Assembly: GCF_037042905.1 (NCBI RefSeq)
Contig: NC_087250.1
Span: forward strand, 24,678,001 to 24,742,000
Direction: 5' to 3'
DNA from: Lytechinus pictus
Lineage: Eukaryota
Length of the DNA stretch: 64,000 nucleotides
Shown: in pieces, positions 1 through 63,621 of the stretch
Layout of the letters: each line of letters begins with the position of its first letter
Numbering within the stretch: position 1 is the first letter of the stretch
Notes under the pieces: generated by a model
The model's input: only the letters and a program-made list of their open reading frames with translations
Database searches by the model: none
Told to the model about the DNA's origin: nothing
Program-made: the position numbers and the translations under genes

Positions 1-1295
1 CATATTACAATTTGCAAGTGAGATCATAACATGAAAATGAGCGTAACTTACTTTTATTCCTATGGAATGTCATTAGAATAGTATTGATGTTCCCTCCAAG
101 ATTTTCTGCTCCAATGAAGTTCACTCAGATACCATGATTTCGAACATCAATTCTATAAACAGATAATTAGTCTAGCTATTTCGTTTCAGAAACTTGAAAT
201 TCGCAGAGTCCAAAAGAACGACACTCCGCACAGATATCGTAGGGAATTGTGGGACGGAAAAAATGTTTAATGCATGAGTACATGAATAAAACATTAGCGT
301 TTTATCCAATCATACAAGTGCATTATGCGTATTTTGACGTCATTCTCATGAATAAAACATTGACCCTCCAAAATCAACCTTCAAATTGTCCGCCGGCAGC
401 CATGTTTGTTATGTACAAAACCTATGGGAAATAAAAACGCGCGGAAAGAGTTACCTCTCTAGCTCCCTTCGGGAGCTTATACGTAAGATTGTATCTCTGT
501 GCCTCCTAATTGGTCTGGCGCCATCTGCGACAAATTATGCAGTCTGCTTTCCAGATTCGTACCGCAAAAAAAATGTGAGCATCTCTTGTATTTTCTACTT
601 TAATTTAAATTTTGACGAAAACTGGTAAGTGTGACTGTGAAACTATGTTGCATGTATATATATTTTAAGAGCGATGTCATTGTATGATTTATTATTAGAG
701 GGATAAGTGCAGGTACGTCAGAGATATGATAAACGAAGTGTGACCCTTTTGAGCACCGGAACCCACCACACCAGCACCACGAGTATCGCGGATGATTCTT
801 CCCGAAACTTCCCGGGAGGCATTCTTCATTGCGCTGTCGGGGGGCGGGCGCGGATCTCGAAACTGATCTGATTGAACACTCACACTCATAGCATTACGAA
901 TATTACGAATTACGAATTCAACAAATCCCCTCCTTTGGGCCTAAGACCGTCACCGCTAATCATTTTATATTAACATAGACCAAAAGCTTCAGTCTCTGTA
1001 TTTTGGTTGTTCCGCTGAACTACGTTGGCTCCACTCACCATACATAGACTGAAGGGGATGGGGCCCTGTACCTACAGCCAACGTATAGTGAACTAGCGTT
1101 TTATAGATCGCGATTTAAAACTGTTTTTTAAGCAAAATTGAAAGTTTCATGGTTTCCATTATCAAGGAAATATAAATAACTTAAGTAATTGCATACCTTG
1201 GGCCGGAGTTATTGAAAAAAATCCTCTGGATGATTGAGAAATCTGTCATCTAAGACATTTTCACCTGACCTGACGGTTTTTGTCGGGAAATAATA

Positions 1296-3710
1296 AGATG
1301 GCAAATATAGCGATCTTCAACGCTTATATATAAGCGTCGAAATTTGTAGCCATCTCCTTGTATTAGTCTATAATATACGACGTGTCAAATTGTAGCGAAC
1401 TAGTTCGCCATTTCCAGATCTCCTCTATATATATATATACGAGGGGAAATTGTAGCGAACTAGTTCGCTATTTTCCAGATCTCCTCTATATACAAACGAC
1501 GGGAAATTGTAGCGAACTAGTTCGCTATTTTTCGGATCTCCTCGATATATACACGAGGGGAATTGTAGCGAACTAGTTCGCTATTTTCCAGATCTCCTCT
1601 ATAAACAAACGACGGGAAATTGTAGCGAACTAGTTCGCTATTTTTCGGATCTCCTCGATATATACACGAGGGGAATTGTAGCGAACTATAGTTCGCTATT
1701 TTCCAGATCTCCTCTATATACATACTACGGGATTTGTAGCGAACTAGTTCGCTATTTTTCGGATCTCCTCGATATGTACACGAGGGGGAATTGTAGCGAA
1801 CTAGTTCGCTATTTTTTATTTTTCCAGATCTCCTCTATATACATACGACGGGATTTGTAGCGAACTATATACGAGGGGGCATTGTAGCGAACTAGTTCGC
1901 TATTTTTTTGGATCTCCTCTATATATACACCAGGGAGGAATTGTAGCAAACTAGTTCGCTATTTTTCGGATCTCCTCTACATGTATACGACAGGAAATTG
2001 TTGCAAACTAGTTCGCCATTTCTCATCTCCTCTCTAAAATATAAACATGGCAAACTGTAGCGAACTAGTTGGCAATTTTTCTGATCTCTTCATATACACG
2101 AGGGGGAAATTGTAGCGAACTAGTTGTCATTTTTTCCAAAGCTTACATTATTGTGAAGGCTTCAAAGTGAAAATCTGCAGGTTTTGGCTGTATATATTGA
2201 TGCCATATTGTCAAATTGTAGCAGACTAGTTCGCTATTTTCCAGATCTCCTCTATATATATATACGAGGGGGAATTGTAGCGAACCAGTTCGCTATTTTC
2301 CAGATCTCCTCTATATCCATACGACGGGATTTGTAGCTAACTAGTTCGCTACTTTTCGGATCTCCTCTATAAAATTATATACACGAGGGGGAATTGTAGC
2401 GAACTAGTTCGCTACAATTCCGTCTCTTGTATATATAAAGATTAGAAAAATAGCGAACTAGTTCACTAATTCCTCCTCGTGTATAACATTTTATAGAGGA
2501 GATCCGAAAAATAGCAAACTAGTTCGCTACAATTTTCCGTCGTATATATAAAGAGGAGATCCAAAAAATAGCGAACTAGTTCGCTACAAAAGAAGAGATC
2601 CGAAAAATAGCGAACTAGTTCGCTATAATTTCCCGTCGTATATATATAAAGAGGAGATCTGGAAAATAGCGAACTAGTTCGCTATGATTTCCCGTCGTAT
2701 ATATATATAGAGGAAATCCGAAAAATAGCGAACAAATCCCGTACTAGTATGTATCTAGAGGAGATCTGGAAAATAGCGAACTAGTTCGCTACAATTCCCC
2801 CTCGTGTATATATATCGAGGAGATCCGAAAAATAGCAAACTAGTTCGCTACAATTTTCCGTCGTATATATAAAGAGGAGATCCAAAAAATAGCAAACTAG
2901 TTCGCTACAAAAGAAGAGATCCGAAAAATAGCGAACTAGTTCGCTATAATTTCCCGTCGTATATATATAAAGAGGAGATCTGGAAAATAGCGAACTAGTT
3001 CGCTATGATTTCCCGTCGTATATATATATAGAGGAAATCCGAAAAATAGCGAACAAATCCCGTACTAGTATGTATCTAGAGGAGATCTGGAAAATAGCGA
3101 ACTAGTTCGCTACAATTCCCCCTCGTGTATATATATCGAGGAGATCCGAAAAATAGCGAACTAGTTCGCTACAATTTTCTGTCGTATATAGAGGAGATCC
3201 GAAAAATAGCGAACTAGTTCGCTACAAAAGAAGAGATCCGAAAAATAGCGAACTAGTTCGCTACAATTTCCCGTCGTATATATATATAGAGGAAATCCGA
3301 AAAATAGCGAACTAGTTCGCTACAAATCCCGTAGTATGTATCTAGAGGAGATCTGGAAAATAGCGAACTAGTTCGCTACAATTCCCCCTCGTGTATATAT
3401 CGAGGAGATCCGAAAAATAGCGAACTAGTTCGCTACAATTTCCCGTCGTTTGTATATAGAGGAGATCTAGAAAATAGCGAACTAGTTCGCTACAATTCCC
3501 CCTCGTATATATATATATAGAGGAGATCTGGAAAATAGCGAACTAGTTCGCTACAATTCCCCCTCGTATATATATATATAGAGGAGATCTGGAAATAGCG
3601 AACTAGTTCGCTACAATTTGACACGTCGTATATTATAGACTAATACAAGGAGATGGCTACAAATTTCGACGCTTATATATAAGCGTTGAAGATCGCTATA
3701 TTTGCCATCT
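1296..3710. mobile_element. Foldback-type element with internal array of about 57-bp units
   Basis: About 110-bp near-perfect terminal inverted repeats (AGATGGCAAATATAGCG...); about 40 units with palindromic core TAGCGAACTAGTTCGCTA, forward to about 2390 and reversed after 2420. Confidence 0.85.
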
Positions 3711-3725
3711 ATAAAATACCGTTTT

Positions 3726-4516
3726 TGTCTCACCTGCATAGCAGAGTGAGACTATAGGCGCCGCTTTTCCGACGGCGACGGCGGCGGCGGCGTCAACACC
3801 AAATCTTAACCTGAGGTTAAGTTTTTGAAATGACAGCATAACTTAAAAAGTATATGGACCTAGTTCATGAAACTTGGCCATAAGGTTAATCAAGTATTAC
3901 TGAACATCCTGCCTGAGTTTCATGTCACATGACCAAGGTCAAAGGTCATTTAGGGTCAATGAACTTAGACCATGTTGGGGGAATCAACATCAAAATCTTA
4001 ACCTAAGGTTAAGTTTTTGAAATGTCATCATAACTTAGAAAATATATGGATCTGATTCATGAAACTTGGACATAATAGTAATCAAGTATTACTGAACATC
4101 CTGTGCAAGTTTCAGGTCACATGATCAAGGTCAAAGGTCATTTAGGGTCAATGAACTTTGGCCAAATTGGGGTATTTGTTGAATTACAGCCATAAATTTG
4201 AAAGTGTGTTGGTCTAGTTCATAAAACTTGGACATAATAGTAATCAAGTATCACTGAAAATCCTGTGCGAGTTTCAGGTCACATGATCAAGGTCAAAGGT
4301 CATGTAAGGTCAAAGAACTTTGGCCACGTTGGGGGTATTTGTTGAAGTGCCATCATATCTCTATAAGTGTATTGGTCTAGTTCATAAAACGTGGAAATAA
4401 GAGTAACCAAGTATCACTGAACATCTTGTGCGAGTTATAGTAGTTTTCAAAATCAGCACTGCTGCTATATTGAATCGCGTGATGCAGGTGAGACGGCCAG
4501 AGGCATTCCACTTGTT
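3726..4516 (+). mobile_element. Helentron-associated (HINE/DINE-1-like) non-autonomous element
   Basis: Subterminal IR GTCTCACCTGCAT (3727-3739)/ATGCAGGTGAGAC (4482-4494), short 5' IR, (GGC)n microsatellite, four internal tandem units of about 180 bp, T-rich insertion site. Confidence 0.75.
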
Positions 4517-6575
4517 CTTGCAAGTTGCCATCTTGAATGACGTCATTATCGTTATTAACTTAATGTCTCGAATCGATATATCGCGATTATAACTAGTACT
4601 AGTACTAGTATAACTAGTATCGTTTATCTTCGGTTTCGTTCGCATATGGAGCAGATCGTATAATATCGAAAGCAATATCGATATCACATTCGTGATTGTT
4701 GACGTTCGTTTGTAAATATTTTATAGTTTGGCTGCCATTTTGACCATTTTTATCGTGTTCAACCCAATTAAACATCGGTAAAGTATATTTTTCATGCCTT
4801 TTTCATCTATATCGTTTAAAGTATTTAAACATTGAAATATCAAGTTTTAAAAGTTTGTTGTTTATACATCCTTAGATTGTAAATTCGATGTGTAAAATTA
4901 CATCAAACTTTGGACTGTGAATTGACAAAAGGGAGGGAATGAGAACACATGCGAGCCCACACGTACACCCTACCGTCGGTAAATGGGGATTACAGTAAAA
5001 TGTCAGAAATTGTTGAATAAATCCCCAGAAACGACGGTTATTCCTGTCTAATATTAACAGAGCGCTGGCAGCTGACGTCCATCAAGGCTCAAGCCGGTCG
5101 TAAAACACGCTCTCACTGATGGACAGCGGAAATCAATTGTTGTACGCTGCTCCTACCCATTGGCATTGCGATGTTGTTCGTTCACTTTATCAAAAGCAAC
5201 GCACAGCAGCGAACTTTAGCGCTATGAAAATGATAGCAGAAACAAGAAAACAGGCGTGCATAAACATATTTTTTACGTACATCGCAAACAACCGCACATG
5301 AAATGCATTGACATCACCTTGCAGATCCGTATATCTACGGCAAAAAAGCAGTTGAAATTTGACGGAGAAATGTGCGGAAAAACGTTTAAATGCATCTTTT
5401 TCGGACAGTATTGATGTCGATAGTAGCGCTTACCTTCGGTCAGAAGTTGATTTTCATTTGGGCATAAAATTCCACAGGATTGATGAAATTTAACAGGATT
5501 TTTTTGATGGTCAGACGACAATCGCATATTATAGACAGCCTAAAATAATGTACTGACAAACCGGATATGAATTGCGCATTGCATTCTAGGTAATGTAGGG
5601 ACTTTCCCTATTGGCAATCGGGGCTAAAACATGACCGTCTTTGGTCGAAAGAGGGCCAGTGATCGATCGGTGACGATCAATGGCCGAAGGAGCTTGTGTA
5701 AACAATCGCCCCGGGCGGTCGTAGTAAAAATTTGATTCTGCGTCTATCAGTGTCAGCAAGGCTCCATGACTTCTTCGTCATGGAGCCTTGCTGACACTGA
5801 TAGACGCAGAATCGAATCGAGACCTAGTAGACACCTGGGGAGTGTTTCATGAAAGGACTTGTCAGACGTTTTATCCGACAAGTCCCGTTTTATCCGACAG
5901 TTACCATAGTAACAGTGGCCCTCAGCCAATCCGAATCAAGGAAAGATGTCATATCTGACAACTTGTCCTACAAAAATGTTGTTCGAGGAGTTTTTAAACA
6001 TTAATTTTTTTTTTTTTAATTTCTCCTCGTACACAGACGGCTCGCTAGCGTGCTGCCGCCACTAGGTGAGTTACAATGCAAAATCCCCCAAGGGGCTCAT
6101 TGATTTTTGTCTTTATTTCATAAAATATATAAAAAGAACTGTACCAAAATAAAGCTTATTATTCCGTTTTGGCCTGAAATGCACCAAAACGGGGAAAAAT
6201 AAACTTAAAAGGGGAAAAAACAGTGACTTACTTTGGCTGTCGCGCAACTTCACTTCTCTGTTTTATCCGAACTTAATACATAAACATATGTTCCCCTGTA
6301 CAGATCACGCTAGAACTTGGTCTCTGTATTTGGTGAGTGAAGCCAACGGAGTTCAGCGGAACAACCAACATAACAGAGACCGAAACTTTTGGTCTAATAC
6401 CTGGATGGATTTCCCTAGTGAAATTGGTTTGTACGGGTGAATTTTATTGATATTTGAACCCGCTCACACGTATTGTGAGGTAGTATTAGTATACAAACCT
6501 CGCACCATGAACCGCGTTTGGCAGTGGATTTCTAACTACATGTAGTGGATCGCACGTGCTGGGATCCCACTTCTT

Positions 6576-9012: not shown

Positions 9013-11350
9013 TCAGTCGTTCCCCTCTTGGATGTTCAGGCCATGAGGTTGGGTGGTGCGAAGTCGTCTCATCCAGAGCTTCTCCCTGCTAGTACGGACT
9101 GAGTCAGGACGGGTACCTAAAGATTCGATGCCCTGTAGCATCATGTCAGTGATGGAGTGGTTGGGGAGGTTAAAATGGCGGCCAACTGGAGTGTCCAGCT
9201 TTGCTGTGTTGACGGTGGATCTGTGCCCGTAGAATCGTTTCTTGAGTGTGGTCTTGGTTTCCCCTATGTATTGTACCCTACAAACTCTGCAAGTGATGAG
9301 ATATACAACATTAGTGGTAGTGCATGTGATGTTGCCCTTGATTTGGTGAGACAGGCTGGTAGAGTTGCTGGTGAAAGTATCGCCCTCGTGAAGGTGTATT
9401 TCACATATGATGCACCTGTTGCTGGTGCATTTGAAGGTGCCATGCTGTATGGGAGAAGAATGGTTAGTGAGGGAGGGCACTTCAGCACGAACAATGAGGT
9501 CCCTGAGATTCGGTGGGCGTCGGTATGCTAGAAGGGGAGTATCGGGAACGGCCTGTTGGAGACGATCAGAAGTGTGTAAAATGTGGTGGTTATCAAACAG
9601 GATTTTGCGGAGAGGGGGTAGATTGGGATGGAAGGTGGTCACAAGCGGTATTCTGTCGGTGGTCTCCTTGTCACTTTTTGGTTTGAGAACTTCAGATCTG
9701 GGGAGAGAACGAACTTTGTTAATTGCCAGTTGGACTGCCCTGGCCCCGTGGCCCCTAGCACAGAGATGTTTCTGCAGATTCCTGGCATGGAAGGAAAAAT
9801 CAGGGTCCTCGGAGCAGATACGGCGAAGTCTGAGGGCTTGACTGTAAGCGATGCCGGTTTTGCAGTGACGGGGGTGGCAGCTGGATGAGTGGAGGTACTG
9901 GTGGGTATCTGTGGGTTTAGAGTATAGGGTAGTGGTGATACCATTAGACTTTTTCTGGACTGTAACATCAAGGAAGTGGGTTTCCTGTTGGGAGAAATCA
10001 GAAGTGAATTGGATGGTCCTGTGGAAGGAATTGATGTGGTCAATGAATGTATGGAGGCTGTCTTCATCCCTGGTCCAGATGAAGAAAATGTCGTCTATGT
10101 AACGCCACAAAATCCATGGGCGACAGGGGGCTGAATCTAACATCTGCTGTTCCAGCTTCGTCATGAAGAGACAGGCGAATGAAGGAGCCATCCGGGTGCC
10201 CATTGCTGTACCGAATATCTGTAGGTAGTGCTTGCCCATGAATGTGAAGTTGTTTTTTGTTAGTACATGAGACATCAGAGATTTGATATCGGATATGGGG
10301 GGACTGGAATGGCCACTGGCGGCCAAGGCTTCACATGATGCTTGGATACCTTCGTCGTGGGGAATGCTGGTGTACAGTGAAGAAACATCGAAAGTGCCGA
10401 TGATCGCAGTCTCGGGTATCTGGTCCTTGATGTCATTTAGTTTCCTGAGAAAGTCTGGAGTGTCGTGGATGTAAGAGGGTGCACGTGAGACAAGGGGCTT
10501 AATGTGGTAATCAACAAAAAGGGAGATGTTCTCTGTTGAGGAACCATTTCCTGAGAGGATGGGTCGACCGGGGTTGCCAGGTTTGTGGATCTTCGGGAGG
10601 AGATAGAAGCGGGCAGGTTTAGCATTAGTAGGGGAGAGAAATTTGTGGGCCTTCTCAGAGAGATACTCGCGTTCTTTCATGTCATTCAGTGTCGATTGGA
10701 TCTGTAGGGTCAGAATCAAGGAGTGCATAGTGAGATCGATTATTGAGATGTTTCATGGCTTCATCGATGTACTGCTGGCGGTCCATAACAACGACGGCTG
10801 ATCCTTTGTCTGCAGGCTTGATGATGATGTCGGACCTGTTTTTGAGTGATGAGAGAGCCTGGCGTTCTTCTCGAGGAAGGTTGTCATGTGCTCTGGTGTC
10901 GAGGGTATCTGTGGAGCGAACTTGGGATGAGACAGCTTGGATGTAAGTTTCAAGGGAAGGAACTCTATTCTTAGGTGGAATCCATGTGCTTTTCTTGTAG
11001 AAGGGCTCGGGATCAGAAGGGGGTGCATCTAAAAAGAACTCTTTGAGACGTATCCTGCGATAGAATGTAGAGAGGTCTTGGCTGAGAGCTATCTGTTCAA
11101 CTTCTGGTGGCGTGGGGCAAAACTTGAGACCTTTAGAGAGAAGAGAGGTTTCTGCTTGGGAGAGAGGGGAGGATGAGAGATTAACAACCAAATGGGGGAT
11201 ACATCATTGTTGTTGGTATGTCGTCTAAATCTGTTTGACCGTTGTCGCTTCTTTGTGAGGTTGCCTATTTTCTTGTTCCTGCGTTCAGTGAGGAGAGACC
11301 TGTGTTTAGAGAGATCAGATTCAATTTCATCATTATACTGAAGCCATTGG
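9013..11350 (-). pseudogene. PLE reverse transcriptase / GIY-YIG endonuclease ORF, broken by two frameshifts
   Basis: PLE motifs VVNLS, LSKGLKFCPTP, IKPADKG, YLLPKIHK, GRPI, FDVSSLYT, GTAMG, RYIDD, then a Cys-rich linker and VVYLITC..C...YIGET. Frame changes at about 11195 (C5 run on - strand) and about 10705 (between track ORFs 10682-11191 and 9013-10728). Confidence 0.9.
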
Positions 11351-33966: not shown

Positions 33967-36900
33967 ATGAGGCGCCGAATGTACCAATATTATATAGAAC
34001 AATTATTTGTTATATAATCATTATTTATTAAATAATAACTATTATTTATATATAATTTACATTTTATTTGTAAATAACTACTATTATATAAAATATCATT
34101 TCTAATTATTTATATATAATTCCAAGTAATACTTCATTATTTGTAAATAATAATAGTTCGACATTCCATTATTTATAAATAATGATTATTTGTTTTTCAT
34201 TATTTATAAATAATGATTATTTGTTTTTCATTATTTACAAATAATGATTATTTGTTTTTCATTATTTATAAATAATTTGTTGAGTTTTCCATTATTTATA
34301 AATAATGATTATTTGTTAAATAATGAAAACGTCTACTTCATTATTTATAAATAATTTTTTCGAGTGCACCATTATTCTCATTATTTATAAATAATCATTA
34401 TTTAATGTTCGAGTTTTCCATTATTTATAAATAATGATTATTTGTTAAATAATGAAAACGTCTACTTCATTATTTATAAATAATTTTTTCGAGTGCACCA
34501 TTATTCTCATTATTTATAAATAATCATTATTTAATGTTCGAGTTTTCCATTATTTATAAATAAAGATTATTTGTTAAATAATGAAATATCTACTTCATTA
34601 TTTATAAATAATAATTTTGTTTCAATATCCCATTATTTATAAATAATCATTATTTATAAACAATTTTTACAGTTTGCCATTATATACAAATAATCATTAT
34701 TTATATACAAATAACCATTATTTATTAAATAATGCCATTATTTATTAAATAATGCCATTATTTATTAAATAATGCCATTATTTATTAAATAATGCCATTA
34801 TTTATTAAATAATGGAAAACTCGCTATAACATGCAAATGTGGGACCGCCCATGATATGAATATTCATGATGCGATTTCCTTTTTCGTGATTTTTCTTCAC
34901 AAATTTTTGTCCATTTCCTCTTCATAATGACATTTCTTGAAGCAATTTTCTAGAGATATGGTCTGATTGTAATATTCTTCATTTTCTATATAACTTCGTC
35001 TTCGTAGAAATATCAAAAAGTGTAATTTTATTCGATTTTTCCTACAGTTCACAATCCCCATAGGCGCGCGTGTACGGTAGGGACAACCGGTGAATCGACG
35101 GAGTGCTCTTCATCGAAATACTACGTTGGTTGGTCCCCGGAAGTGGCAGGCGGAATTTAGCCCGAATCCTCGATGGAAGTCAATCAAGTGCATATGAGCT
35201 GAGAGAGTGAAATATCAGTGTACTTGTACAGGCCCTTCTACTTTTTATAAATATTTCTTGTTGCTTTTTTTGTTAAGTTAATTTTTCCTGGTATAGAGAT
35301 AAGTTTCAGTTCTAATAATGCACTTCAAATACATTTTGGAGTGTCTGTTTGAGGCGTTTGGGGCGATTTCACCCTGGCCCCAAAATGCTCGCAACGACAA
35401 TACGGGGGCATGATGACCCCTAAATTTTTAAAAACTTATTTTTCTATTAAAAATTATCACAAAATTCACCAAAAGTGTGCACGAAAGCCTTCGTATTTCA
35501 CTTTTAAAACTCCAAAAAGTGCCCAAATGACAAGCTTGGTCGCTTCGCTGTGTCGCTTTCAACTTGAGAACGTTTACGCGTCTGCTTCCCCCCCCCCCCT
35601 CCTCCGAAAGAAATTCTGTATACGGCCATGCTCTGAAGAGCCTGGCACATTGATTTATGTATACTTTCATTTTCATTATTTTTATCTCATTATCAACATG
35701 GCCTTACGCAGAATTTTTTCCAGGGGGGCCGGGGCCGGAGCATGACGCGCGTAAACTTTCTCAAAAAAATCTTGAAAGCGAGACAGCCACGGGACCAAGC
35801 CCAAATGACAAGCTTGGTCGCTTCGCTGTCTCGCTTTCAACTTGAGAACGTTTACACGCGTCTGCCCCCACCCCCCGAAAGAAATTCTGTGAACGGCCAT
35901 GCTCTAGTAAAGAGCCTGGCACATATTGATTTATGTATACTTCATTTTCATTATTTTTATCTCATTATCATCATGGCCTTACGCAGAATTTTTTCCGGGG
36001 GGGGGGGGGGGGGGGGTGGGGGGAGCAGGACGCGCGTGAACTTTCTCATAAAAATCTTGAAAAAGCGAAGCGACCAAGCTTGTCATTCGGGCTTGGTCCC
36101 GTGGCTGTCTCGCTTTCAAGATTTTTTTGAGAAAGTTTACGCGCGTCATGCTCCGGCCCCGGCCCCCCTGGAAAAAATTCTGCTTAAGGCCATGTTGATA
36201 ATGAGATAAAAATAATGAAAATGAAAGTATACATAAATCAATGTGCCAGGCTCTTCAGAGAATGGCCGTATACAGAATTTCTTTCGGAGGAGGGGGGGGG
36301 GGGAAGCAGACGCGTAAACGTTCTCAAGTTGAAAGCGACACAGCGAAGCGACCAAGCTTGTCATTTGGGCACTTTTTGGAGTTTTAAAAGTGAAATACGA
36401 AGGCTTTCGTGCACACTTTTGGTGAATTTTGTGATAATTTTCAATAGAAAAATAAGTTTTTAAAAATTTAGGGGTCATCATGCCCCCGTATTGTCGTTGC
36501 GAGCATTTTGGGGCCAGGGTGAAATCGCCCCAAACGCCTCAAACAGACACTCCAAAATGTATTTGAAGTGCATTATTAGAACTGAAACTTATCTCTATAC
36601 CAGGAAAAATTAACTTAACAACAAAAGCAACAAGAAATATTTATAAAAAGTAGAAGGGCCTGTACAAGTACACTGATATTTCACTCTCTCAGCTCATATG
36701 CACTTGATTGACTTCCATCGAGGATTCGGGCTAAATTCCGCCCGCCACTTCCGGGGACCAACCAACGTAGTATTTCGATGAAGAGCACTCCGTCGATTCA
36801 CCGGTTGTCCCTACCGTACACGCGCGCCTATGGGGATTGTGAACTGTAGGAAAAATCGAATAAAATTACACTTTTTGATATTTCTACGAAGACGAAGTTA

Positions 36901-37925
36901 TATAGAAAATGAAGAATATTACAATCAGACCATATCTCTAGAAAATTGCTTCAAGAAATGTCATTATGAAGAGGAAATGGACAAAAATTTGTGAAGAAAA
37001 ATCACGAAAAAGGAAATCGCATCATGAATATTCATATCATGGGCGGTCCCACATTTGCATGTTATAGCGAGTTTTCCATTATTTAATAAATAATGGCATT
37101 ATTTAATAAATAATGGCATTATTTAATAAATAATGGCATTATTTAATAAATAATGGCATTATTTAATAAATAATGGTTATTTGTATATAAATAATGATTA
37201 TTTGTATATAATGGCAAACTGTAAAAATTGTTTATAAATAATGATTATTTATAAATAATGGGATATTGAAACAAAATTATTATTTATAAATAATGAAGTA
37301 GATATTTCATTATTTAACAAATAATCTTTATTTATAAATAATGGAAAACTCGAACATTAAATAATGATTATTTATAAATAATGAGAATAATGGTGCACTC
37401 GAAAAAATTATTTATAAATAATGAAGTAGACGTTTTCATTATTTAACAAATAATCATTATTTATAAATAATGGAAAACTCGAACATTAAATAATGATTAT
37501 TTATAAATAATGAGAATAATGGTGCACTCGAAAAAATTATTTATAAATAATGAAGTAGACGTTTTCATTATTTAACAAATAATCATTATTTATAAATAAT
37601 GGAAAACTCAACAAATTATTTATAAATAATGAAAAACAAATAATCATTATTTGTAAATAATGAAAAACAAATAATCATTATTTATAAATAATGAAAAACA
37701 AATAATCATTATTTATAAATAATGGAATGTCGAACTATTATTATTTACAAATAATGAAGTATTACTTGGAATTATATATAAATAATTAGAAATGATATTT
37801 TATATAATAGTAGTTATTTACAAATAAAATGTAAATTATATATAAATAATAGTTATTATTTAATAAATAATGATATATATAACAAATAATTGTTCTATAT
37901 AATATTGGTACATTCGGCGCCTCAT
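33967..37925. mobile_element. 3.96-kb foldback (giant palindrome) element
   Basis: Arms 33967-35827 and 36064-37925 are near-identical reverse complements with a 236-bp spacer; ACATACAT direct repeat at 33959-33966 and 37926-37933. Confidence 0.92.
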
Positions 37926-39179
37926 ACATACATGTATAGGGACACGCCAGTCATTTTAATTTGTTGTTATTTCAACACCTATGGATGTTATTGTTATTTC
38001 AACACCTTTGGTTGTTACTTTTACACCCTTAAGTGTTGTATCAATCTCTTTGGTGTAACTTTAACATCTCAGGGTGTGTTCCTCTATGAACACCAACTGG
38101 TGTCGGCTTTTAACACCCTGTTTTTAAAGTGTTCACATATCTGAATAATTCAGTGATTTATCGATGCATGGTGCTATGTAGTTGAAGATGAGTTAACTTG
38201 TGAAAATTTATAACCTTCAAAGTTTTCTTATTTCATGTTTTTGCAGAGCTCTACATGAAATTGGTATATATACACATGAACATATTCTGTTATACCATGT
38301 GATACAAAGTGAGAATAGAAAGTAGAATATTGAATCCCTGCTAATCATAACTTGCCATCAGATTCATATTGTTTATCTTCCTTTAGTCCAGTCAATCTAG
38401 CCAGAATAGGGGGGCAACCCACCACTAATTGCAACACGAGATATTCCACTGAAATGCTTTCCAGGAAGGTCCCCTAAACAACATACTAAAAGTCCCAAGA
38501 AATCCAAGCAGTGGAAATTTATGAAATTTGCATATTATGCAAATTAGCCATGAAAAATTAGAAAAAGAAGGGAAATAATCCAAAGAGTACAAATTAAATG
38601 TCCAAAATAATTTGATTTGAATGGAAATTCATGATAAATAACTGAAGTCAATGTTTTCAATCAAAAGTGCAAAAATTTCTACCTCATTTGCATATTATGC
38701 AAATAAGCATCCTTATATGGAAAAAATGTCAAGATATTGTGATTTTTCTCATATAGACTGCTTCAAAACATTTCATTAATGTTGACATTAATATGCTACT
38801 ATATAACTAAGCATGAGAATTCATCCCAATGCCTGAAAATTAATTTGCATATTATGCAAATTAGCCATTTAAAAAAATAGAAAATGAGAAATGAGAAAAA
38901 TTAAATGTCCACAGCAAGTAATTTTGAACATGATGAATAAATAAGTTCAATGTCTATATTTAAAAGAGCTAGCAAATCTGCCTCATTTGCATATTATGCA
39001 AATAAGTATCCTTATATGGAAAATGTCAAGAAATTTAGATTTTTATCACATTGACTGCAGTGAAAACATTTAAGTTTTTTCAAATTAATATGCTGCTATC
39101 ACTAAGCATTCAAATCTATCCTAATATGATTTATATTCAAGGAAAAATACTTGAAATATGTTCTTCGCTTCTTAAGCGT

Positions 39180-41600
39180 TAGTCTGACAAGATGATGGGA
39201 TTGGCAAGAACAAAGCACAGTATTTGAATTGGTGTGTAGTTTGTTAGAGTTGACAACCCTTTCTTATATGGATGGGAACGACTTAGACTTTCTTGAAATT
39301 TCACCGCATAAACATGATAAAGGGAGGCCAGGAAAAGCAAACTTATGGCAGGTAAGATCTGATGAGTAGTCTCATTAAGAAGTGCAGCAGAGATTCCGTC
39401 TGGCCTCCCAGGACCAAAATCCAGTTGAAACCAATTAGAGCAAAACCAATTGAAACCAGTTGGCCAACTGGTTTCAATAGGGAAATTGGAACAACTGGAA
39501 CCAATTGAAACCAGTTGCCAACTGATTCCAGTTAAAACCAATTGGGCAACTGGAACCAGTTGGCAATTGGTTTCAATTGGTTCCAGTTGAAAACAATTAA
39601 GCAACCAGTTGGCAACTGGTTTCAATTGGTTCCAGTTGTTCCAATTTCCCTATTAAAACCAGTTAATCCAATTGGAGGTAACTGGTTTCAATTGGTTCCA
39701 GTTGAAACCAATTGGAGGCAACTGGTTTCAACTGGAACCAGTTGAAACTAATTGGTTTCCAACTGGATCCAATTGGAACTTCCAGTTGGAATGACTTAAT
39801 TAGTTACAAATTAATTAGATTTTGCACTAACTATTGCTCATGCCAACAAAGAAGCAGTGCTATATGTCTATAATACCAATGTAAAGGGCATTGATAAATA
39901 GACTTTCATTATGTATATATATTACATGACGTACAGAGCTTCAAATATATGTATTTGTATTTGATGTAATTTGGTAACAGTTAGTGGTGTACTAATTATC
40001 TTATAATCTGTTTTAATTATAATCTATGACATTTATGAACATGGTTTTCACTCCTAAGCATTCTAAACACTTATCTGAAACAAGTATGGTACTTGAAATA
40101 GAAAATAATTAAATAGATACATTTTAAATGATGATGAATCACATAAAACATTAATCTGTGCACACTGGCAGATAATATGCAAATTAACTGGTTTCAATTG
40201 GAACCAGTTGGGTAACTGGAAAATTTCCAATTGGAAACCAATTGGAAGTCATTTCCAGTTACCCAACTGGATCCAGTTAGGATTTCCAGTTACCCAACTG
40301 GTTCCAGTTAGGATTTCCAGTTACCCAACTGGTTCCAGTTAGGATTTCCAGTTACCCAACTGGTTCCAGTTAGAAATCATTTCCAGTTGGAAGTCATTTC
40401 CAGTTACCCAACTGGTTCCAGTTAGGATTTCCAGTTACCCAACTGGTTCCAGTTAGAAATCATTTCCAGTTGGAAGTCATTTCCAGTTACCCAACTGGTT
40501 CCAGTTAGGATTTCCAGTTACCCAACTGGTTCCAGTAAGAAATCATTTCCAGTCGGAAGTCATTTCCAGTTACCCAACTGGTTCCAGTTAGGATTTCCAG
40601 TTACCCAACTGGTTCCAGTTAGGATTTCCAGTTACCCAACTGGTTCCAGTTAGAAATCATTTCCAGTTGGAAGTCATTTCCAGTTACCCAACTGGTTCCA
40701 GTTAGGATTTCCAGTTACCCAACTGGTTCCAGTTAGGATTTCCAGTTGCCCAACGGGTTCCAGTTAGGATTTCCAGTTGCCCAACTGGTTTCAATTGGTT
40801 TCAACTGGAAATTGTTATATTCCAGTTAAAACCAATTGAAACCAGTTGAAACCAATTGAAACCGAATGAAACCAGTTGGAAATCCAACTGGTTTCAATTG
40901 GATTTTGGTCCTGGGCTAGTAGCTTCATGCAGGTTGTTTTCTTTAACAATTTCTTCAGTAGTCTGGCTACACCTGCTTGACTAAACAATATGTTATCTGG
41001 CCATATCTGGGTCAGGACTGGGTCCCAGGACTTCAGCGTCATCATCATCATGATCAGTGGTGAATACTAAGACTAAAAATCTTTGCCTTCCTTTAATAAT
41101 GATATTCCAATGTAGTCATAGCTATTGATATTAAGGGCTCCCAACATGCTAATTGTTACAGCCTGGATCATTGTCAATCCGGTCAACAAATTATGTATAA
41201 TAGGCTTGACTACAAACCCTCTTATGGTCCTCTTTAATGCATTGTAGCAATTCTGAGCTTTACCTTACTGATGCTTTTGGAGCTCTAAAATGTGCAAGCC
41301 TTCCTAGACTTTCTCTAAAACTCTTGACATCTTCCGACACAACTTATGTCCATTCTCTCATTGAGGCAACTTGTGTCGGAAGAAGACATGGTTAATGGTG
41401 TGTTCTTGTTAAAGTCCTCTTGATTGGCATTCAGTCTCCTATGCTCGACTTGTCGGATTTCAGTACAGAGAGTTGTATGATTGTCCAAAGTACATCTGCA
41501 TGACACTATTAAAGTCAGCATTCCTCCAGAAGAACATCCTTAGTCGTACCATAAAATGTTTATTCCTCTGGATAACCTCACAGTATACCCATGAGTAGCA
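39180..41600 (-). pseudogene. Degenerate LINE ORF2 fragment (CR1/L2-like), split by the 39407-40915 insertion
   Basis: GVARLLKKL...(AT)RPDGISAALLNE...ISLLFLASL...KKG...NYTPI resembles the pre-RT segment of non-LTR ORF2; many disablements; extent approximate. Confidence 0.65.
39407..40915. mobile_element. Non-autonomous TIR element with subterminal repeats (EnSpm/CACTA-like)
   Basis: TIR CCCAGGACCAAAATCCA...TGGATTTTGGTCCTGGG, 2-bp CT duplication, arrays of CCAGTT/AACTGG/CCAATTGG motifs including a 31-bp tandem unit at about 40250-40790. Confidence 0.8.
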
Positions 41601-42104
41601 CATTGTGGCAAATAAATCTTGGAAGTGGTACACACTGTCTAATCAATGTTGGATGGTATTTGATGGTGATGTTAAGGGTGTTCCATTATGTTGTGTCCTC
41701 TTGTTGGAAAGGCAATAATCTGGCTTAGTTCTCCATCTGGTTTGTTGTCTCACTGAGGAATTTATGTTTACCATAAATATCAGGAAATTAATATTATTAT
41801 TTGCATACGACTTACTTAGAAACTATAGCTTTAATATTTTGAGATGGTTGCCATAGGAGATTTATCAAAGAGGAGAGAACAGAAAATGGATGCTTCAACA
41901 TGAAGCAGCAACTGGATTCAGCAAGAACGTCTAATTACGATTCCTGTATCTGAGAAAGATGCCTATAATGCACTTTAAGCCTTCATCATGAATTTATGAA
42001 TGGCTTTCATGTCGCTCGTATAGGCAAATGCCCATTGTTACTCTTATTAAGCATGCCCAGAGATCTTGTGATCCAAGAAAGTACTCATATTCACCACCAA
42101 GACA

Positions 42105-42590
42105 AGTGATGATGATGATGATGATGGGTTCTTGTAAAGCGTCGGTATCCGCCTCAGCTGGGCGCTCATGGCGCTTGCTCAAAAATAGGAAATATCTCAC
42201 AAATTTCAATGTCTTCAAACAGTGCTTAGGATCATCATTCAGTTCAAGTACTGTCCTAGTAATGCTACAATTGAGTTATTCTTGTCTTGGGATAATGTTG
42301 GAGTGGGGAACAGAAAGGTCTTCAGGTAAGACTCAAAAGTTGATTGGGTCTCTGCTCTCCTGATAAATTGGGGAAGGCTATTCCACAGCTTTGGTCCAGA
42401 GATGTAGAAGGCTCTGTCACCCCAGGTTGTGTGGCTGAGAGATTCCCTCAGCAATGCTTGAGCTGCTGATCTGAGACTGCGTGTTGGTCTATGCTGAGAT
42501 AAGAGCTCTGAGATGTAGGGTGGAGATTTATCGTTAAGCGCTTTAAATACAAGGACCCCAAGTGACATCTTGTGCTGATCACTTGGCAAT
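42105..42590 (-). mobile_element. L2-like LINE 3' end
   Basis: VFKALN..SPPYISELL...PTRSLRS...WGDRAF...GPKLWNSLP..IR...F...LKTFLF followed by a 3' UTR ending in (CAT)n. Confidence 0.8.
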
Positions 42591-43924
42591 CCAGGAGTTG
42601 CTAGCGTGGACTATACTCGCAAGAAACGCAAAGTCTCTATACAAAGTCAAGAAGAGAGCAAGACTTGGATGGAAATAATGAAACATTCAAGCAGTGGGAT
42701 CCATGTAGAATTGACTCATCATTGTACAATATGAGTGGGGTAACTGCTCGTGACAAAACTCAATATCAACCAAGCAAGAAGTGTAGGGAAGGTCATCATG
42801 GTTAATACACATAATCTACATGGAATTTTAGAGGAAAGTATCACTTATGTGTTTCCTTGAATATTTATAACATGTCGGATGCTTATTTGCATAATATGTA
42901 AATTATACTTCAGATATTAAGCTGATTATTAATGTATTTGCCATTCTTAGTGATCAAATCATATTGATCTAGACTGAAATGTTTTCATAACTGTTTTTGT
43001 GAGAAAAATTAAAATTTCTGGATTTTTTCCATATAAAGATGCTCATATATATGCAAATGAGGTAGATTTATTTACGATTTTTTTATCTAAAACATAAATA
43101 AATTTGTAAAACTTGTCATGGGCTTCAGTTCAATTCGTATTGATTTCCAATATTTGGATTATTTTCCTTATTTGTAATTTATTATGGCTAATTTGCATAA
43201 AATGCAAATTTTGTGATTTTCCCATATGCTTGTATATTTAAGGACTTTTAATATGGTGTTTAGGAAACCTTCCTGTAAGGTATTGCCATATTCCAATTTC
43301 AATAGATAATCTACTTGTAATTTTTGAGGGATGTATCACCAGTGTGTTTTCTTGAATATTTATAACATGTTAGATACTTTTATTTGCATAATATGCAAAT
43401 TACACTACAGACACTAAGCTGAATACAAATGTATTCAACGTCCTTAGTGATAGCAGCATGTAAATTCCAACATTAATGAAATTTTTAAGCAGATAATGAG
43501 AGAAAAATCACAATACCTACACATTTTTCCATATAAGGATGCTTATTTGCATATTATGCAAATGAGGTAGATTTTTTGCACTTTTGACAAAAAACATTGA
43601 ATACAGGTATTCATCATGAATTTTTGCTCAAATTAAATTGTTTTGGACACTCAATTTGTAATCGTTGGGCTATTTTCCTTATTTTTCTTACTTTTTATGG
43701 CTAATTTGCATAATATGCAAATTTAATAAATTTCCACTGCTTGGATTTCTTGGGACTTTTAGTATGTTGTTTAGGGGATCTTCCTTGAAAGCATTGCAGT
43801 GGAATATCTCGTGTTGCAATTAGTGGTGGGTCAAACCCTATATTGACTGGACTACTTTCCATTAGTGAAGAAGCTTGATGTGGATTCACGTAGGCAATAT
43901 CTTTGTTTTTTATCAGAGTTTTTG

Positions 43925-59496: not shown

Positions 59497-60947
59497 GGTT
59501 GTCTGTCATGATTTTTCATTCAGTGTCGGCTAATATGTATGGAATGAATCTTCTAGATATGATTGATAATCTTCATCATAGACATCATAGGAATAAATTT
59601 TGACCATTGCTAAATGTGATTATTAATGTGGTGATGACAATCGCGGATGATTATAATGATGGTGGTGATAATGCGAAACGGAAAATACGAAATGAACTAA
59701 TGAGCACATAAAACGCCTTAAAATCTCCTCAAAATCTTCATACGATTTTACCAAAATTGGTTTTCCAAAATAACGCAATGAAAGGCGCCCTAATTTTCAC
59801 AGCAGCTAATTTTAATCGACAGTACTTTAATGTTTTTATGCAAAATCTTTTTTTTTATTCTTTGTACTGTCAGCAATTTTGTTTAATGATTTCAATCAAG
59901 AATTTTTACAACATCATTGGGAATGAATTTTCACAGAATACTTGAAAATTTATAGGTGATACTTTCTGAAAAATAAAATATCTTTAGTATTTTCATTCAA
60001 AATTTCTGCTAATTTCAATAATTTTTAATGAGAAGTTTCAGAATGCTACAATTTCACAGCATTCACTTCAATACTCATCAGTGATGTATTTGATAAAAGA
60101 ATTAAGTATAATTTTTTTGGGGTAAATGTTTGCAAAATCTCTGCAAATTTCTAAACACTTCACATAATATTTTCCGTCAAGAATTTTTAATATCCATATA
60201 TTAATTGTGTAAGACTTCGATATTTACTTGAAAATTCTTTCTTGAAGGTTTTTGCTGAAAAACGTCAGGTAAAAGATTCAAATACTGGCAATTTTCCTAC
60301 AAAAATTCGGGAAAATGTGTAATTAATACCTCTTAACGCGCGAAGCGAGTTAATGAGAGGTTATCTCAGGTCAGACTAGCTGGACAACAACATAGCCCGC
60401 CAGCGGTACGTAACAGGTGTTTTACAAGGAAGGAGCCTGGTCAGGCGAATTCCTTTGCCCTGGCGGAGATATGTTGCGATGCCAAATATGGTATTTTGTC
60501 GGACTTCACGAGGAGGCGTGGCCAAAAAATGTTGCGTTGCGAATTTTGGTATTTTCGGACATTACAAGGAGGCGTGGCTAAAAATGCTACGTCGCGTTAG
60601 CTGACGTGGTAATTTCGGGAGGGGGCAAAAGCCAATTTCTAACAAGTTAGCATTCTTCTTCGTGGAGTCGATTTGAAAGCATCTTCCATCTCAATTCACC
60701 TGTCTTGTGCAACATACTTCCTGTATTTTTGTTATATTTCGTTGAACTCTTTAGTTGTGATCCTTCTAATTGTCTTTCTTACCCATTCATATATCTTAAA
60801 GAACGCTTCGCAGTTGAGAATTTATTCTTTTATCTAGGAACATACCTGTATATTTGTGTTATATCCGTTTGTTGGACTTTTGAGCTGTTAGGAGTCACAG
60901 TTTGCTCTAAGGACTTTTCAATTTCGCCACCCCTGCATTATTCAATC

Positions 60948-62057
60948 ATGCCCAAGGTTAAGCCAGGCAAAAAGTTAAGTCAGAGGAAGTCTACTCGTCG
61001 TTCGGTCCGAGATGCCGCCAGCCAGCCTTCTCCTGTCGACCTCGAGACAGACGTCGGCCAAGTTTTTACTTCTACGCAGAGCCCAGCTGCTGGAAGTTCG
61101 GCGTCGACAACCAACGGTGAGTTCGGGACAATGGGGGGCTCCTGGCCTCTTGTGACTTCTCCACAAGATCCGGTCATTCCCCAAATTCAATCCCAAGCTT
61201 CTCCTTCTATCCCTCCTGCCCATGTAGTTGAGGGGCTTAATAGTCATGATAATTTTACACCAGCCCCCAACCCTCCTTTTCCTACGCTGTCTGCGCAGCC
61301 AGATATGCTTAGCTGTGTGTGTGATGATTTGGGCGGGGAGGTGCCTTCCAGTGTTAAGGAGAAGATTTGGAAAGGTGAATTTGTAGAGTTAGGTGGATTA
61401 CTAAAAAGGGAAAGCTTAAGTGAGGAAAGTTCCCAGTTGCAGGCCTTCAGCCTTTGTGCCACCGGGTCCGCTTTAATGCTTCGCCCCCAAAGCAAGGCTC
61501 CGGTGATCGCCAGCATAGAACAGTGGACATCTGCGTTCATTATTTACGCGTCTATATACTTGGAGCGACACTGTATGCGTGCGCGCGAGCTCCTCAAGTA
61601 TATGGATATCGTTCGCTCTATTGTGCGTTTTGGGGGTTTCAATTGTCGGGCCTATGACATTCAATTTCGGTTACGTCAGGCCTGTCATCCACATCGTTCC
61701 TGGGCTGTCATAGACACCGAGCTATGGCTGACAGTAGCTTCGACGCCCGGTCGAGCAGCGTTTTCGTCTTTTGGGGGTAACCAGCCCTTTCGGCCATACG
61801 ACCGGTCGTTTCGGCGGGGTAGTTTCCCATCCTCAGGATATGCCAACAGACAAGGGGCAATTCGGGCCCCTGGCGCCGCGCCTGCCCCCTTCCGCTCCTC
61901 ACCAGTCTGTTTCGCCTTTAACGCTGGGTCATGCCAACGCACCGCCTGTCGTTATGCTCACCGGTGCGGAAAATGCTCCTCAGCAGCGCATGGCTCACAC
62001 GCCTGCAACTCTGCCGCTGCAATCGCCAAACAGAAGCCTAGCTCCAACTCCAATTAA
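60948..62057 (+). CDS. Ngaro-like Gag (ORF1), 369 aa from ATG 60948
   Basis: KEKIWKGEFVEL, IEQWTSAFIIYASIY, YDIQFR motifs and C-terminal Cys/His cluster CFAFNAGSCQRTACRYAHRCGKCSSAAHGSHAC. Confidence 0.85.
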   Translation: MPKVKPGKKLSQRKSTRRSVRDAASQPSPVDLETDVGQVFTSTQSPAAGSSASTTNGEFGTMGGSWPLVTSPQDPVIPQIQSQASPSIPPAHVVEGLNSHDNFTPAPNPPFPTLSAQPDMLSCVCDDLGGEVPSSVKEKIWKGEFVELGGLLKRESLSEESSQLQAFSLCATGSALMLRPQSKAPVIASIEQWTSAFIIYASIYLERHCMRARELLKYMDIVRSIVRFGGFNCRAYDIQFRLRQACHPHRSWAVIDTELWLTVASTPGRAAFSSFGGNQPFRPYDRSFRRGSFPSSGYANRQGAIRAPGAAPAPFRSSPVCFAFNAGSCQRTACRYAHRCGKCSSAAHGSHACNSAAAIAKQKPSSNSN

Positions 62058-63621
62058 ACTTGGCAGCATGCTCCCATTTCTTAGACGGCACCATAATCAA
62101 CATAATGCAGCTTTTCTGATTTCTGGTTTTAGGTTGGGTTTTTCATTGGGTTTCACAGGCGAGCGTCGCTCTGTGTTCTCGCGTAATTTGAAATCTGCTA
62201 GGGAGCATAGGGACATGCTGTTGGAGAAAGTTGGTAAGGAAGTTAGTTTAGGGAGAATGTCGGGTCCTTTCCAAGACCCGCCTTTCGATAACTTTCGCTG
62301 CTCCCCGGTAGGGCTCGTCCCCAAGCGAAATCCGGGAGAATTCCGTCTAATTCAGCATCTATCTTCTCCTCGGGGGGCTTCGGTTAATGACCACATTGAT
62401 TCCGATTTGTGTTCCGTGAATTACACTTCATTTGACAAGGCGGTTGATCTCGTTGCTCGCTTGGGAGCTAGTGCTCTCATGGGAAAAACCGATATAAAAT
62501 CCGCTTTTCGCTTACTACCAGTGAATCCCTCCGATTTTGACCTTCTGGGGTTTTGCATTGATGGCGCGTATTACTTTGATAAATGCTTGCCAATGGGCTG
62601 CTCAATTTCATGTGCCCATTTTGAGCGTTTTAGCACTTTTCTTGAGTCATGTTGCCGTGAAATTGCGAATTCAGAGCAAATTTTGCATTATTTGGATGAT
62701 TTCTTTTTTGTTGGCGCAACACGGCAGGAATGTCGTTCCTTGATGTATCATTTTAAGGCGATGTGCGAGGTTTTTGGCGTCCCGATAGCGGAGGAGAAGA
62801 CTGAGGGGCCCGTTCCCACTATCATATTTGTAGGGCTTGAAATCGACGCGGCTGAGCAGAGAGTTCGGGTACCCAAGGAGAAAGTAAACGTGTTACAGGC
62901 AATGCTCATTGATTTTGTTAAGAAAGATAAGCTCTCGTTGCGGCAGTTGCAGTCGCTAATTGGCAGCCTTAATTTCGTGTGTAAAGCCGTGGCTCCCGGA
63001 AGAGCCTTCCTAAGGAGACTTATCGATCTTACTAAAGGGGTCCGCACCTCAAACCACCGGATAAGGCTTTCACGCGGCGCAAAAGAGGACATGCAGGCCT
63101 GGCTTACGTTTCTGTCCGATTTCAATGGCACAGTTATGTTTTCACACTCAACATGGGTAACTAATGCTCATTTTCAGTTCTTTACTGACGCTGCGGGTAG
63201 CATTGGCTTTGGTATATCCTTCCAGGATAAGTGGGCTCAAGGGAAATGGCCAGCTGAAATACTGGAGAAGAATTATTCCATCGCTTTTCTAGAGCTTTTC
63301 CCAATAGTAGTCGGTATACGTATGTGGGGGGCTCTTCTAGCTAATTCTAAGGTCTTATTTTGGTCAGATAATCAAACAGTTGTTCATGTTGTTAATTCCT
63401 TAACTTCGAAATGTCCTAGTGTAATGAAACTGGTTCGTTTGCTTGTAGTTCTTTGTTTGGAACATAATATTATGTTCAAAGCACGTTACGTGCCAGGCTC
63501 TCGCAATGAAAAGGCTGATGCCCTCTCTCGTTTTCAGATGGACAGGTTTCGCAGGTTAGCACCAGGCGCAGATCTGGCTGGCAGCAAGCTTCCCGCCCAT
63601 CTTTGGAGCAGCTTCATATAG
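61771..63621 (+). CDS. Reverse transcriptase + RNase H (ORF2)
   Basis: SPVGLVPK, FRLIQHLS, KTDIKSAFR, LPMG, HYLDDF (RT); FTDA, LEL, SDN, NEKADALSR (RNase H); uninterrupted 616 codons. True start uncertain. Confidence 0.93.
   Translation: MGVTSPFGHTTGRFGGVVSHPQDMPTDKGQFGPLAPRLPPSAPHQSVSPLTLGHANAPPVVMLTGAENAPQQRMAHTPATLPLQSPNRSLAPTPIKLGSMLPFLRRHHNQHNAAFLISGFRLGFSLGFTGERRSVFSRNLKSAREHRDMLLEKVGKEVSLGRMSGPFQDPPFDNFRCSPVGLVPKRNPGEFRLIQHLSSPRGASVNDHIDSDLCSVNYTSFDKAVDLVARLGASALMGKTDIKSAFRLLPVNPSDFDLLGFCIDGAYYFDKCLPMGCSISCAHFERFSTFLESCCREIANSEQILHYLDDFFFVGATRQECRSLMYHFKAMCEVFGVPIAEEKTEGPVPTIIFVGLEIDAAEQRVRVPKEKVNVLQAMLIDFVKKDKLSLRQLQSLIGSLNFVCKAVAPGRAFLRRLIDLTKGVRTSNHRIRLSRGAKEDMQAWLTFLSDFNGTVMFSHSTWVTNAHFQFFTDAAGSIGFGISFQDKWAQGKWPAEILEKNYSIAFLELFPIVVGIRMWGALLANSKVLFWSDNQTVVHVVNSLTSKCPSVMKLVRLLVVLCLEHNIMFKARYVPGSRNEKADALSRFQMDRFRRLAPGADLAGSKLPAHLWSSFI

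Follow-up and report, generated by a model that had tools for sequence, protein, structure and literature searches.

Does an array of palindromic repeats whose polarity reverses exactly on one of its palindromes mark a site at which an enzyme cuts and rejoins DNA, or is the reversal a trace of how a larger element shrank? We addressed this question for an array in a 64,000-nt stretch of the Lytechinus pictus genome (the window), by comparing it with the other copies in the genome. The locus is most probably a young, non-autonomous Mutator-type (MULE) foldback transposon, one of a family of about 55 copies, whose inverted arms were fused via homology at the palindromic core.

Anatomy and ends of the window copy

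The core, TAGCGAACTAGTTCGCTA, is a perfect 18-bp palindrome, each copy of which is predicted to fold as a small hairpin. We located 37 near-complete cores (≤4 edits; 24 of them exact) spanning 1393-3613 and three half-cores at 1858, 2726 and 3047, matching the total of about 40 given in an initial annotation of this DNA; elsewhere in the window there was no core match at ≤3 substitutions. The related linkers of about 39 bp described there were recovered as well (29 regular linkers, mean length 39.7 bp, 79% identical), and core and linker together form a repeat unit of ~57 bp. Reading from the left, sixteen cores have rightward linkers; next comes one symmetric core, with AATTG on both flanks, and then twenty cores with leftward linkers, the polarity being rightward to 2396 and leftward from 2415; a switch at about 2390 had been reported. 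The central palindrome, annotated as 30 bp (2391-2420), is 2 bp longer (Table 1). A 321-bp duplication had been noted at about 2495-3136 and was found one position further on; other copies have 0-4 occurrences of its marker linker. The copy does not consist of array alone, since an 89-bp non-array segment interrupts the left arm. In a sister subfamily this segment holds a 1.5-kb nested element with an 8-bp target site duplication (TSD), ATTGTGAA. Separately, an 87% relative of the segment lies at G000:C5:30567826-30567998, outside the listed copies, and is possibly an old member of the family.

The regular core-plus-linker spacing and the hairpin-forming cores give the array the look of a CRISPR locus, and they are what speaks for a CRISPR-like array of acquired spacers, or else for a simple satellite with a local inversion. 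The linkers, however, are not unique spacers: their mean pairwise identity is 0.79 (n = 29), against 0.44 for shuffles. Moreover, the array is mirror-symmetric rather than one-directional, its terminal inverted repeats (TIRs) are multi-copy with TSDs at unrelated sites, a search of Rfam returned ten weak matches, all far below gathering scores and none to a CRISPR family, and there is no open reading frame of at least 170 aa within 5 kb of the array. We therefore regard either of these explanations as extremely improbable.

The element had been delimited at 1296 and 3710. Comparison of copies showed that its true span is 1285-3721, 11 bp more per end, and that these 11-bp tips, GGGAAATAATA and ATAAAATACCG, are present in nearly all copies, at unrelated genome sites. 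The tips are asymmetric and are not inverted copies of each other; across copies, the termini begin GGG at one end and CGG at the other. Directly outside them TTTTTGTC is duplicated (1277-1284 and 3722-3729), which overturns the earlier statement that there was no convincing TSD beyond ATA. Academ-type ends, or ends with a 3-bp TSD (TAA/ATA beside AGATGG), were considered and dropped, because the next 11 bp belong to the element in other copies. As for the TIRs, annotated as about 110 bp with a second palindrome, the palindrome ACGCTTATATATAAGCGT is indeed present at 1320-1337 and 3669-3686, but the length needs correction: the inverted repeat measures 197 bp at 99% identity (1296-1492 / 3514-3710), of which 97 bp is non-array. 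The left outer TIR forms an imperfect hairpin centred on the copy of ACGCTTATATATAAGCGT at 1320-1337 (fold z = -2.35).

Table 1. Features of the window copy (coordinates in the window).
Feature	Position	Strand	Remarks
Left TSD, TTTTTGTC	1277..1284	+	8 bp; identical to 3722-3729
Left terminal motif, GGGAAATAATA	1285..1295	+	outside the inverted repeat; common to other copies
Left outer TIR	1296..1392	+	97 bp; 0 mismatches to right TIR
Left array, outer block	1393..2129	+	13 rightward cores and one half-core, decaying inwards
Non-array segment	2130..2218	+	89 bp; interrupts left arm; conserved across main subfamily
Left array, inner block	2219..2396	+	3 rightward cores and linkers
Polarity switch	2390..2421	.	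32-bp perfect palindrome centred on core 2397-2414
Right array	2415..3613	-	20 leftward cores and 2 half-cores
Higher-order tandem duplication	2496..3137	+	321 bp (2496-2816 / 2817-3137); 1 mismatch
Right outer TIR	3614..3710	-	97 bp; inverted copy of left
Right terminal motif, ATAAAATACCG	3711..3721	-	CGGTATTTTAT on minus strand; unlike left motif; common to other copies
Right TSD, TTTTTGTC	3722..3729	+	runs on into 5' tip of high-copy repeat 3722-4516

The element is inserted into the tip of the 3722-4516 repeat, which itself lies inside a third repeat. With the duplication read once, the sequence of this 5' tip, which was the insertion target, is found 4,938 times across the genome, counting the window copy. 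In sequencing runs aligned to positions 600-1390, the host repeat left of 1282 resumes at 4517 in three of four runs; the same four runs contain the flanking host repeat without the insertion, which, the host repeat being multi-copy, is no proof of an empty allele. TIR-like pieces ~91-92% alike were seen in one of the four, a run labelled with a second organism. As to expression, the one raw RNA run, in which read depth over the TIR is 2, is uninformative. From its anatomy we take the 3722-4516 repeat to be Helentron/HINE-like; its subterminal inverted repeats (TCTCACCTGCAT) lie near 3728 and 4480, and its internal tandem units measure 162/192 bp. The window holds other features as well. In a second foldback, at 34017-37874, a centre of 226 nt separates two arms of 1,816 nt that are 100% complementary; AT-rich tandem units occupy 34133-34814 and 37077-37758, and weaker symmetry continues out to ~33965/37925. 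At 38417-43831, 259-nt inverted arms (89%) surround CCAGTT-type tandem arrays (39444-40887), probably another modular TIR element. A pair of long open frames at 9016-11203 (minus strand) is presumably reverse-transcriptase-like, judging by its motifs, and open frames of 468 and 627 codons lie near the window end (60651-63618, plus strand).

Dispersal of the family

The start of the TIR gave 111 matches at ≤1 mismatch in the 812-Mb genome and none with a reversed control. Requiring tip and TIR start together (≤2 mismatches), we counted 53 left-type and 55 right-type ends genome-wide, with no hit for the reversed patterns in either case, and the family thus comprises ~55 copies. Our census of TSDs and centres covers the 43 complete ones. 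Among these, 32 have a 9-bp TSD, including the C9 copy (the 43rd), six have an 8-bp TSD and five have none, two of the five with a damaged left tip; the TSD sequences are all different. The element has transposed as a unit into unrelated sites, making 8-9-bp target duplications, and the original suggestion of a foldback transposon is borne out. Both 97-bp TIRs are identical to those of the window copy in 25 of 42 copies, which indicates recent spread of the main subfamily. The number of units per end ranges from 4 to 41 across the family and varies through unequal exchange or slippage turnover of the ~57-bp units.

Two further observations concern individual copies. One, at G000:C14:13976251-13977609, carries the left-type tip on either side and has two symmetric-core junctions that lie almost equally far from the respective ends; it is possibly mirror-duplicated. 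Small transposons are repeatedly nested in the TA-rich linkers and the 89-bp segment of L066, L074, L075, L076 and L077, and are carried along as the foldback moves.

Central junctions and the palindromic core

If the core were where the arms always meet, a point that the initial annotation put forward for checking, every copy should switch polarity on the 18-mer. When we classed the centres of the 43 complete copies, they resolved into 15 distinct junctions, of which eight are off the core: five lie in linkers, those of L050/L066 and L068 in TA runs and those of L054, L056 and L062 at other places, and the three of L055, L057 and L074 are at nested insertions. The remaining seven are on the core. 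One of these is the window's junction, found linker for linker in 28 of the 43 copies, which is one event inherited by descent and not 28; L051, L052, L053, L075, L076 and C9 each have an on-core junction of their own. Symmetric-core sites number 44 genome-wide.

Several of these junctions can be followed back to a longer form. First, L052 equals an L074-type element minus 3,385 bp, removed core to core, with no edits in three linkers on each side; its seven right linkers differ from the last seven of L074 by two edits in total. Second, taking the hybrid linker and one core (58-59 bp) out of the L050/L066 type gives the C9 copy. Third, the right arm of L076 starts exactly on a core within the 18.5-kb C5 copy. 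The parent traces of L051, L053 and L075 are looser (5-18 edits on one side) and we do not count them as shown, and L068 looks like the reverse loss relative to the C9-type conversion. Short copies thus derive from longer ones when a deletion brings together a core of the left arm and a core of the right. The proposal that the arms were joined by a crossover at the core, with loss of the interior, holds in this form for the relatives L052, L076 and C9; for the window's own junction, with no parent identified among the copies examined, we infer a core-to-core deletion of the same kind.

Why, then, do deletions land on the core? With two independent random breakpoints, an intact, in-register core is expected in 0.6% of events, and the observed seven of twelve array-to-array junctions far exceed this expectation (p ~2e-13), whereas against the simpler null of a uniform position within the unit (18/57) the same count is only marginal (p = 0.05). 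The arms are inverted, and therefore only self-complementary sequence can be shared between them in direct orientation. All 131 direct matches of at least 15 bp between the window's two arms are core; those of 10-14 bp comprise 196 in core and 49 in (TA)n. This ranking, core and then (TA)n, is also that of the observed junctions. Since every direct inter-arm match of at least 15 bp is core, plain homology suffices for the bias, a sufficiency that we infer from these counts.

The sequence of events would be as follows. Inverted arms share, in direct orientation, only the 18-bp core and, more weakly, the (TA)n runs; a deletion guided by homology, whether through single-strand annealing, through joining at microhomologies or through slippage from one folded-back arm to the other while a gap is repaired, would land most often on the core; and a later core-to-core deletion across the centre could turn any other junction into the on-core type, a conversion that C9 exemplifies. 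A dedicated recombinase would not be required.

The competing explanation, raised in the initial annotation, is that the core serves site-specific recombination: an enzyme would cut the DNA within it and rejoin the ends, thereby miniaturising the element. In its favour, the perfectly palindromic core has a per-position conservation of 91-99.9% over 1,387 cores, against 79% pairwise identity for the linkers, and the seven on-core junctions, the 44 symmetric sites and the repeated central flips seen in seven copies (XOX, XOXOX) are what such an enzyme might leave behind. A fully symmetric site, however, should invert as readily as it deletes, and in the 42 copies whose linkers were classed (1,344 in all) not one inversion within an arm was seen. 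The polarity switches once in 35 of these 42 copies, and the seven multi-switch copies (L031, L035, L040, L043, L048, L063 and L065) proved to be tandem duplications or triplications of the two-unit centre (~117 bp) with linkers in their original orientation, not inversions. Sites of the loxP, FRT or dif type carry an asymmetric 6-8-bp spacer, which the core does not have; no recombinase gene was seen in the interiors read; and the eight off-core junctions also speak against such a site. The absence of inversions largely refutes site-specific recombination, which we consider very unlikely; the notion of a dedicated recombination site gives way to plain homology.

Transposase and affinities

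The assignment to Mutator, made from the ends and TSDs, is a probable one. Three of the five features that we considered for membership of the MULE foldbacks were found: an 8-11-bp TSD without fixed sequence, long TIRs with subterminal tandem repeats in variable number, and a G-starting terminal motif with asymmetric tips outside the inverted repeat (GGGAAATAATA, CGGTATTTTAT). hAT and P elements make a fixed 8-bp TSD and Galileo a 7-bp one, with CA/TA-type termini. A hAT or P/Galileo origin was rejected, 32 of the 38 TSDs being 9 bp and the termini GGG and CGG; the hAT length is likewise given as 8 bp in PMC5499845.

We looked for a transposase in the longer copies. The longest are C5 (18.5 kb), C2 (22.7 kb), C16 (19.6 kb) and C9 (20 kb). 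The C5 interior, of which 8.45 kb was tested, is 97-99% identical to that of C2. C16 contains the ~620-bp tandem unit of C5 at 87% identity, and among the 40 of 9,198 candidates that were scored the unit turned up nowhere beyond these three copies; C5, C2 and C16 look like the long form ancestral to the short copies. The C5 copy (L077) also has a decayed outer-TIR copy at the inner edge of its right arm, and family-specific interior was noted at L077:1-3300 and L077:8449-8640 (G000:C5:33422000 onward). The 8.45 kb read from C5 contains nested repeats, a Tc1-type DDE fragment and degenerate units. Of seven short frames from this interior searched against Pfam, only DDE_3 of the nested Tc1 piece scored above the cut-off, and one frame read through stops had no match among 1.84 billion proteins. 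C9 was read whole and showed nested material, with no frame that could encode a transposase; within these interiors (C9 whole and 8.45 kb of C5) the search for a transposase with the family's ends found none.

Other candidates were tried and rejected. The 1.5-kb interior of L050, L066, L070 and C9 is no transposase remnant and equals the nested element with its own TSD in the 89-bp segment. The medium-long copies L039, L045, L048, L056, L057 and L074-L076 were set aside as autonomous copies, no transposase ORF of their own having been seen (the Pfam scan covered all of these except L057); where examined, their extra length consists of nested MITE-like or LINE-like pieces, including reverse transcriptase and RNase H fragments. 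The genome does contain FLYWCH+MULE genes, yet of the 17 PF10551 (MULE) and 19 PF04500 (FLYWCH) genome matches none is within a known copy. Neither array nor TIR was seen in the 1.55 kb read upstream of the best FLYWCH+MULE locus, G000:C20:115894-116721, which was set aside as a partner.

An alternative is the same element and the same passive collapse with a transposase from another, or an undescribed, superfamily. Merlin/IS1016 elements make 8-9-bp TSDs and have GG at both termini; the TSD length fits, and here one end starts GGG and the other CGG. No MULE gene was linked to the family among the profile matches and in the interiors read, copies of 18-23 kb are large for a MULE, their tandem ~620-bp interior unit has no explanation, and the foldback shape arose in several superfamilies (PMC3169594). 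Against this, the mixture of 9- and 8-bp TSDs with asymmetric CGG/CCC tips closely matches Tm1 and Muta1, and FLYWCH+MULE genes do exist in the genome. We judge a Merlin-like or other non-Mutator transposase unlikely. A bolder version, in which the 2-3-kb copies are collapse products of a giant foldback (18-23 kb or larger) moved by a non-MULE protein family of unknown function encoded in its interior, with the core serving as both the enzyme's multimeric binding site and a built-in collapse point that spawns gene-less derivatives, strikes us as quite improbable.

The affinities of a Mutator-type foldback can be set out against several described systems. In Tm1 of root-knot nematodes, asymmetric 7-bp tips (CGGTTAA / CCTACCC) lie outside TIRs made of tandem motifs, the TSDs are 8-10 bp, mostly 9, without sequence preference, and a copy with a Phantom-like MULE transposase is known beside many non-coding derivatives (PMC3169594). 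The present family resembles it in the short asymmetric motifs that flank the inverted repeat on the outside, with CGG at the start of one and CCC at the end of the other, a likeness in sequence judged from the printed motifs; it also has TIRs with a variable number of tandem motifs, 8-/9-bp TSDs and non-coding derivatives. Tm1 has units of 13-15 bp, 1-9 per end, whereas here each end has 4-41 units of ~57 bp that contain an 18-bp palindromic core, and no transposase copy was found in this family. Muta1 of Aedes aegypti, a type 2 foldback MULE, likewise duplicates 8 or 9 bp of its target, and its subterminal repeats raise both excision and the binding of the transposase (PMC5225508, PMC5499845); its terminal motif, GGGTCTACCC, starts with GGG (PMC5499845). 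Shared with Muta1 are the TSD lengths, a GGG-starting motif, subterminal tandem repeats with linkers, and non-autonomous derivatives whose two ends carry different numbers of repeats. The differences are that here the palindrome is the core of the repeat, the tips differ, and the arms are often fused directly. By analogy with Muta1, the window element would behave as a derivative of a type 2 foldback MULE: its tips would be recognised by a DDE transposase provided in trans, and the repeated cores, each with two inverted TAGCGAAC half-sites, would add binding sites and raise the efficiency of excision. Binding of a transposase to the core is plausible on this comparison, and the position of the junctions lends it no support.

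MULE TSDs are given as 8-11 bp (PMC6446971). Tetris of Drosophila virilis, with 8-10-bp TSDs and no ORF, was placed in Mutator by TSD length alone, the same kind of evidence as is used here (PMC4079207). With Tetris and other modular foldbacks such as Galileo and the sea-urchin TU elements (cited in PMC4079207), our family shares long modular TIRs, internal tandem repeats, arrays that expand and contract, and two-arm copies, whereas the units of Tetris are ~220 bp (PMC4079207). Galileo is a P-superfamily foldback whose arms expand, contract and persist without an interior, and the foldback shape alone does not fix the superfamily (PMC3573991). A palindromic unit core acting as a recurrent fusion point is not described for Tetris or Galileo in the available text of these papers (PMC4079207, PMC3573991). 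As for the deletions, microhomology-mediated internal deletions of Ozma create non-autonomous families, MITEs, that then amplify (PMC3814204). Deletion between short direct homologies likewise yields non-autonomous families here. Unlike Ozma, with its incidental 6-8-bp matches and Tc1/mariner interior (PMC3814204), our family finds its homology in an 18-bp palindrome present many times in each arm, which is why the same junction type recurs. Within a full-text collection that lacks Repbase and the majority of subscription papers, no paper on palindrome-guided internal deletion of foldbacks was returned.

The foldback kind, the turnover of arms and deletion between short homologies are all already known, and this family is a further example of known biology. 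It is a recently active family whose copies record how such elements shrink. A palindromic unit core placed in inverted arms is the only long direct homology between them, and internal deletions recur on the core for that reason; the resulting polarity switch appears programmed but is not, which counsels caution in reading palindrome-centred junctions, or eukaryotic 'CRISPR-like' arrays, as recombination sites. Should the 18-23-kb interiors encode an unknown transposase, the short copies would define both its binding site and its target-duplication rule.
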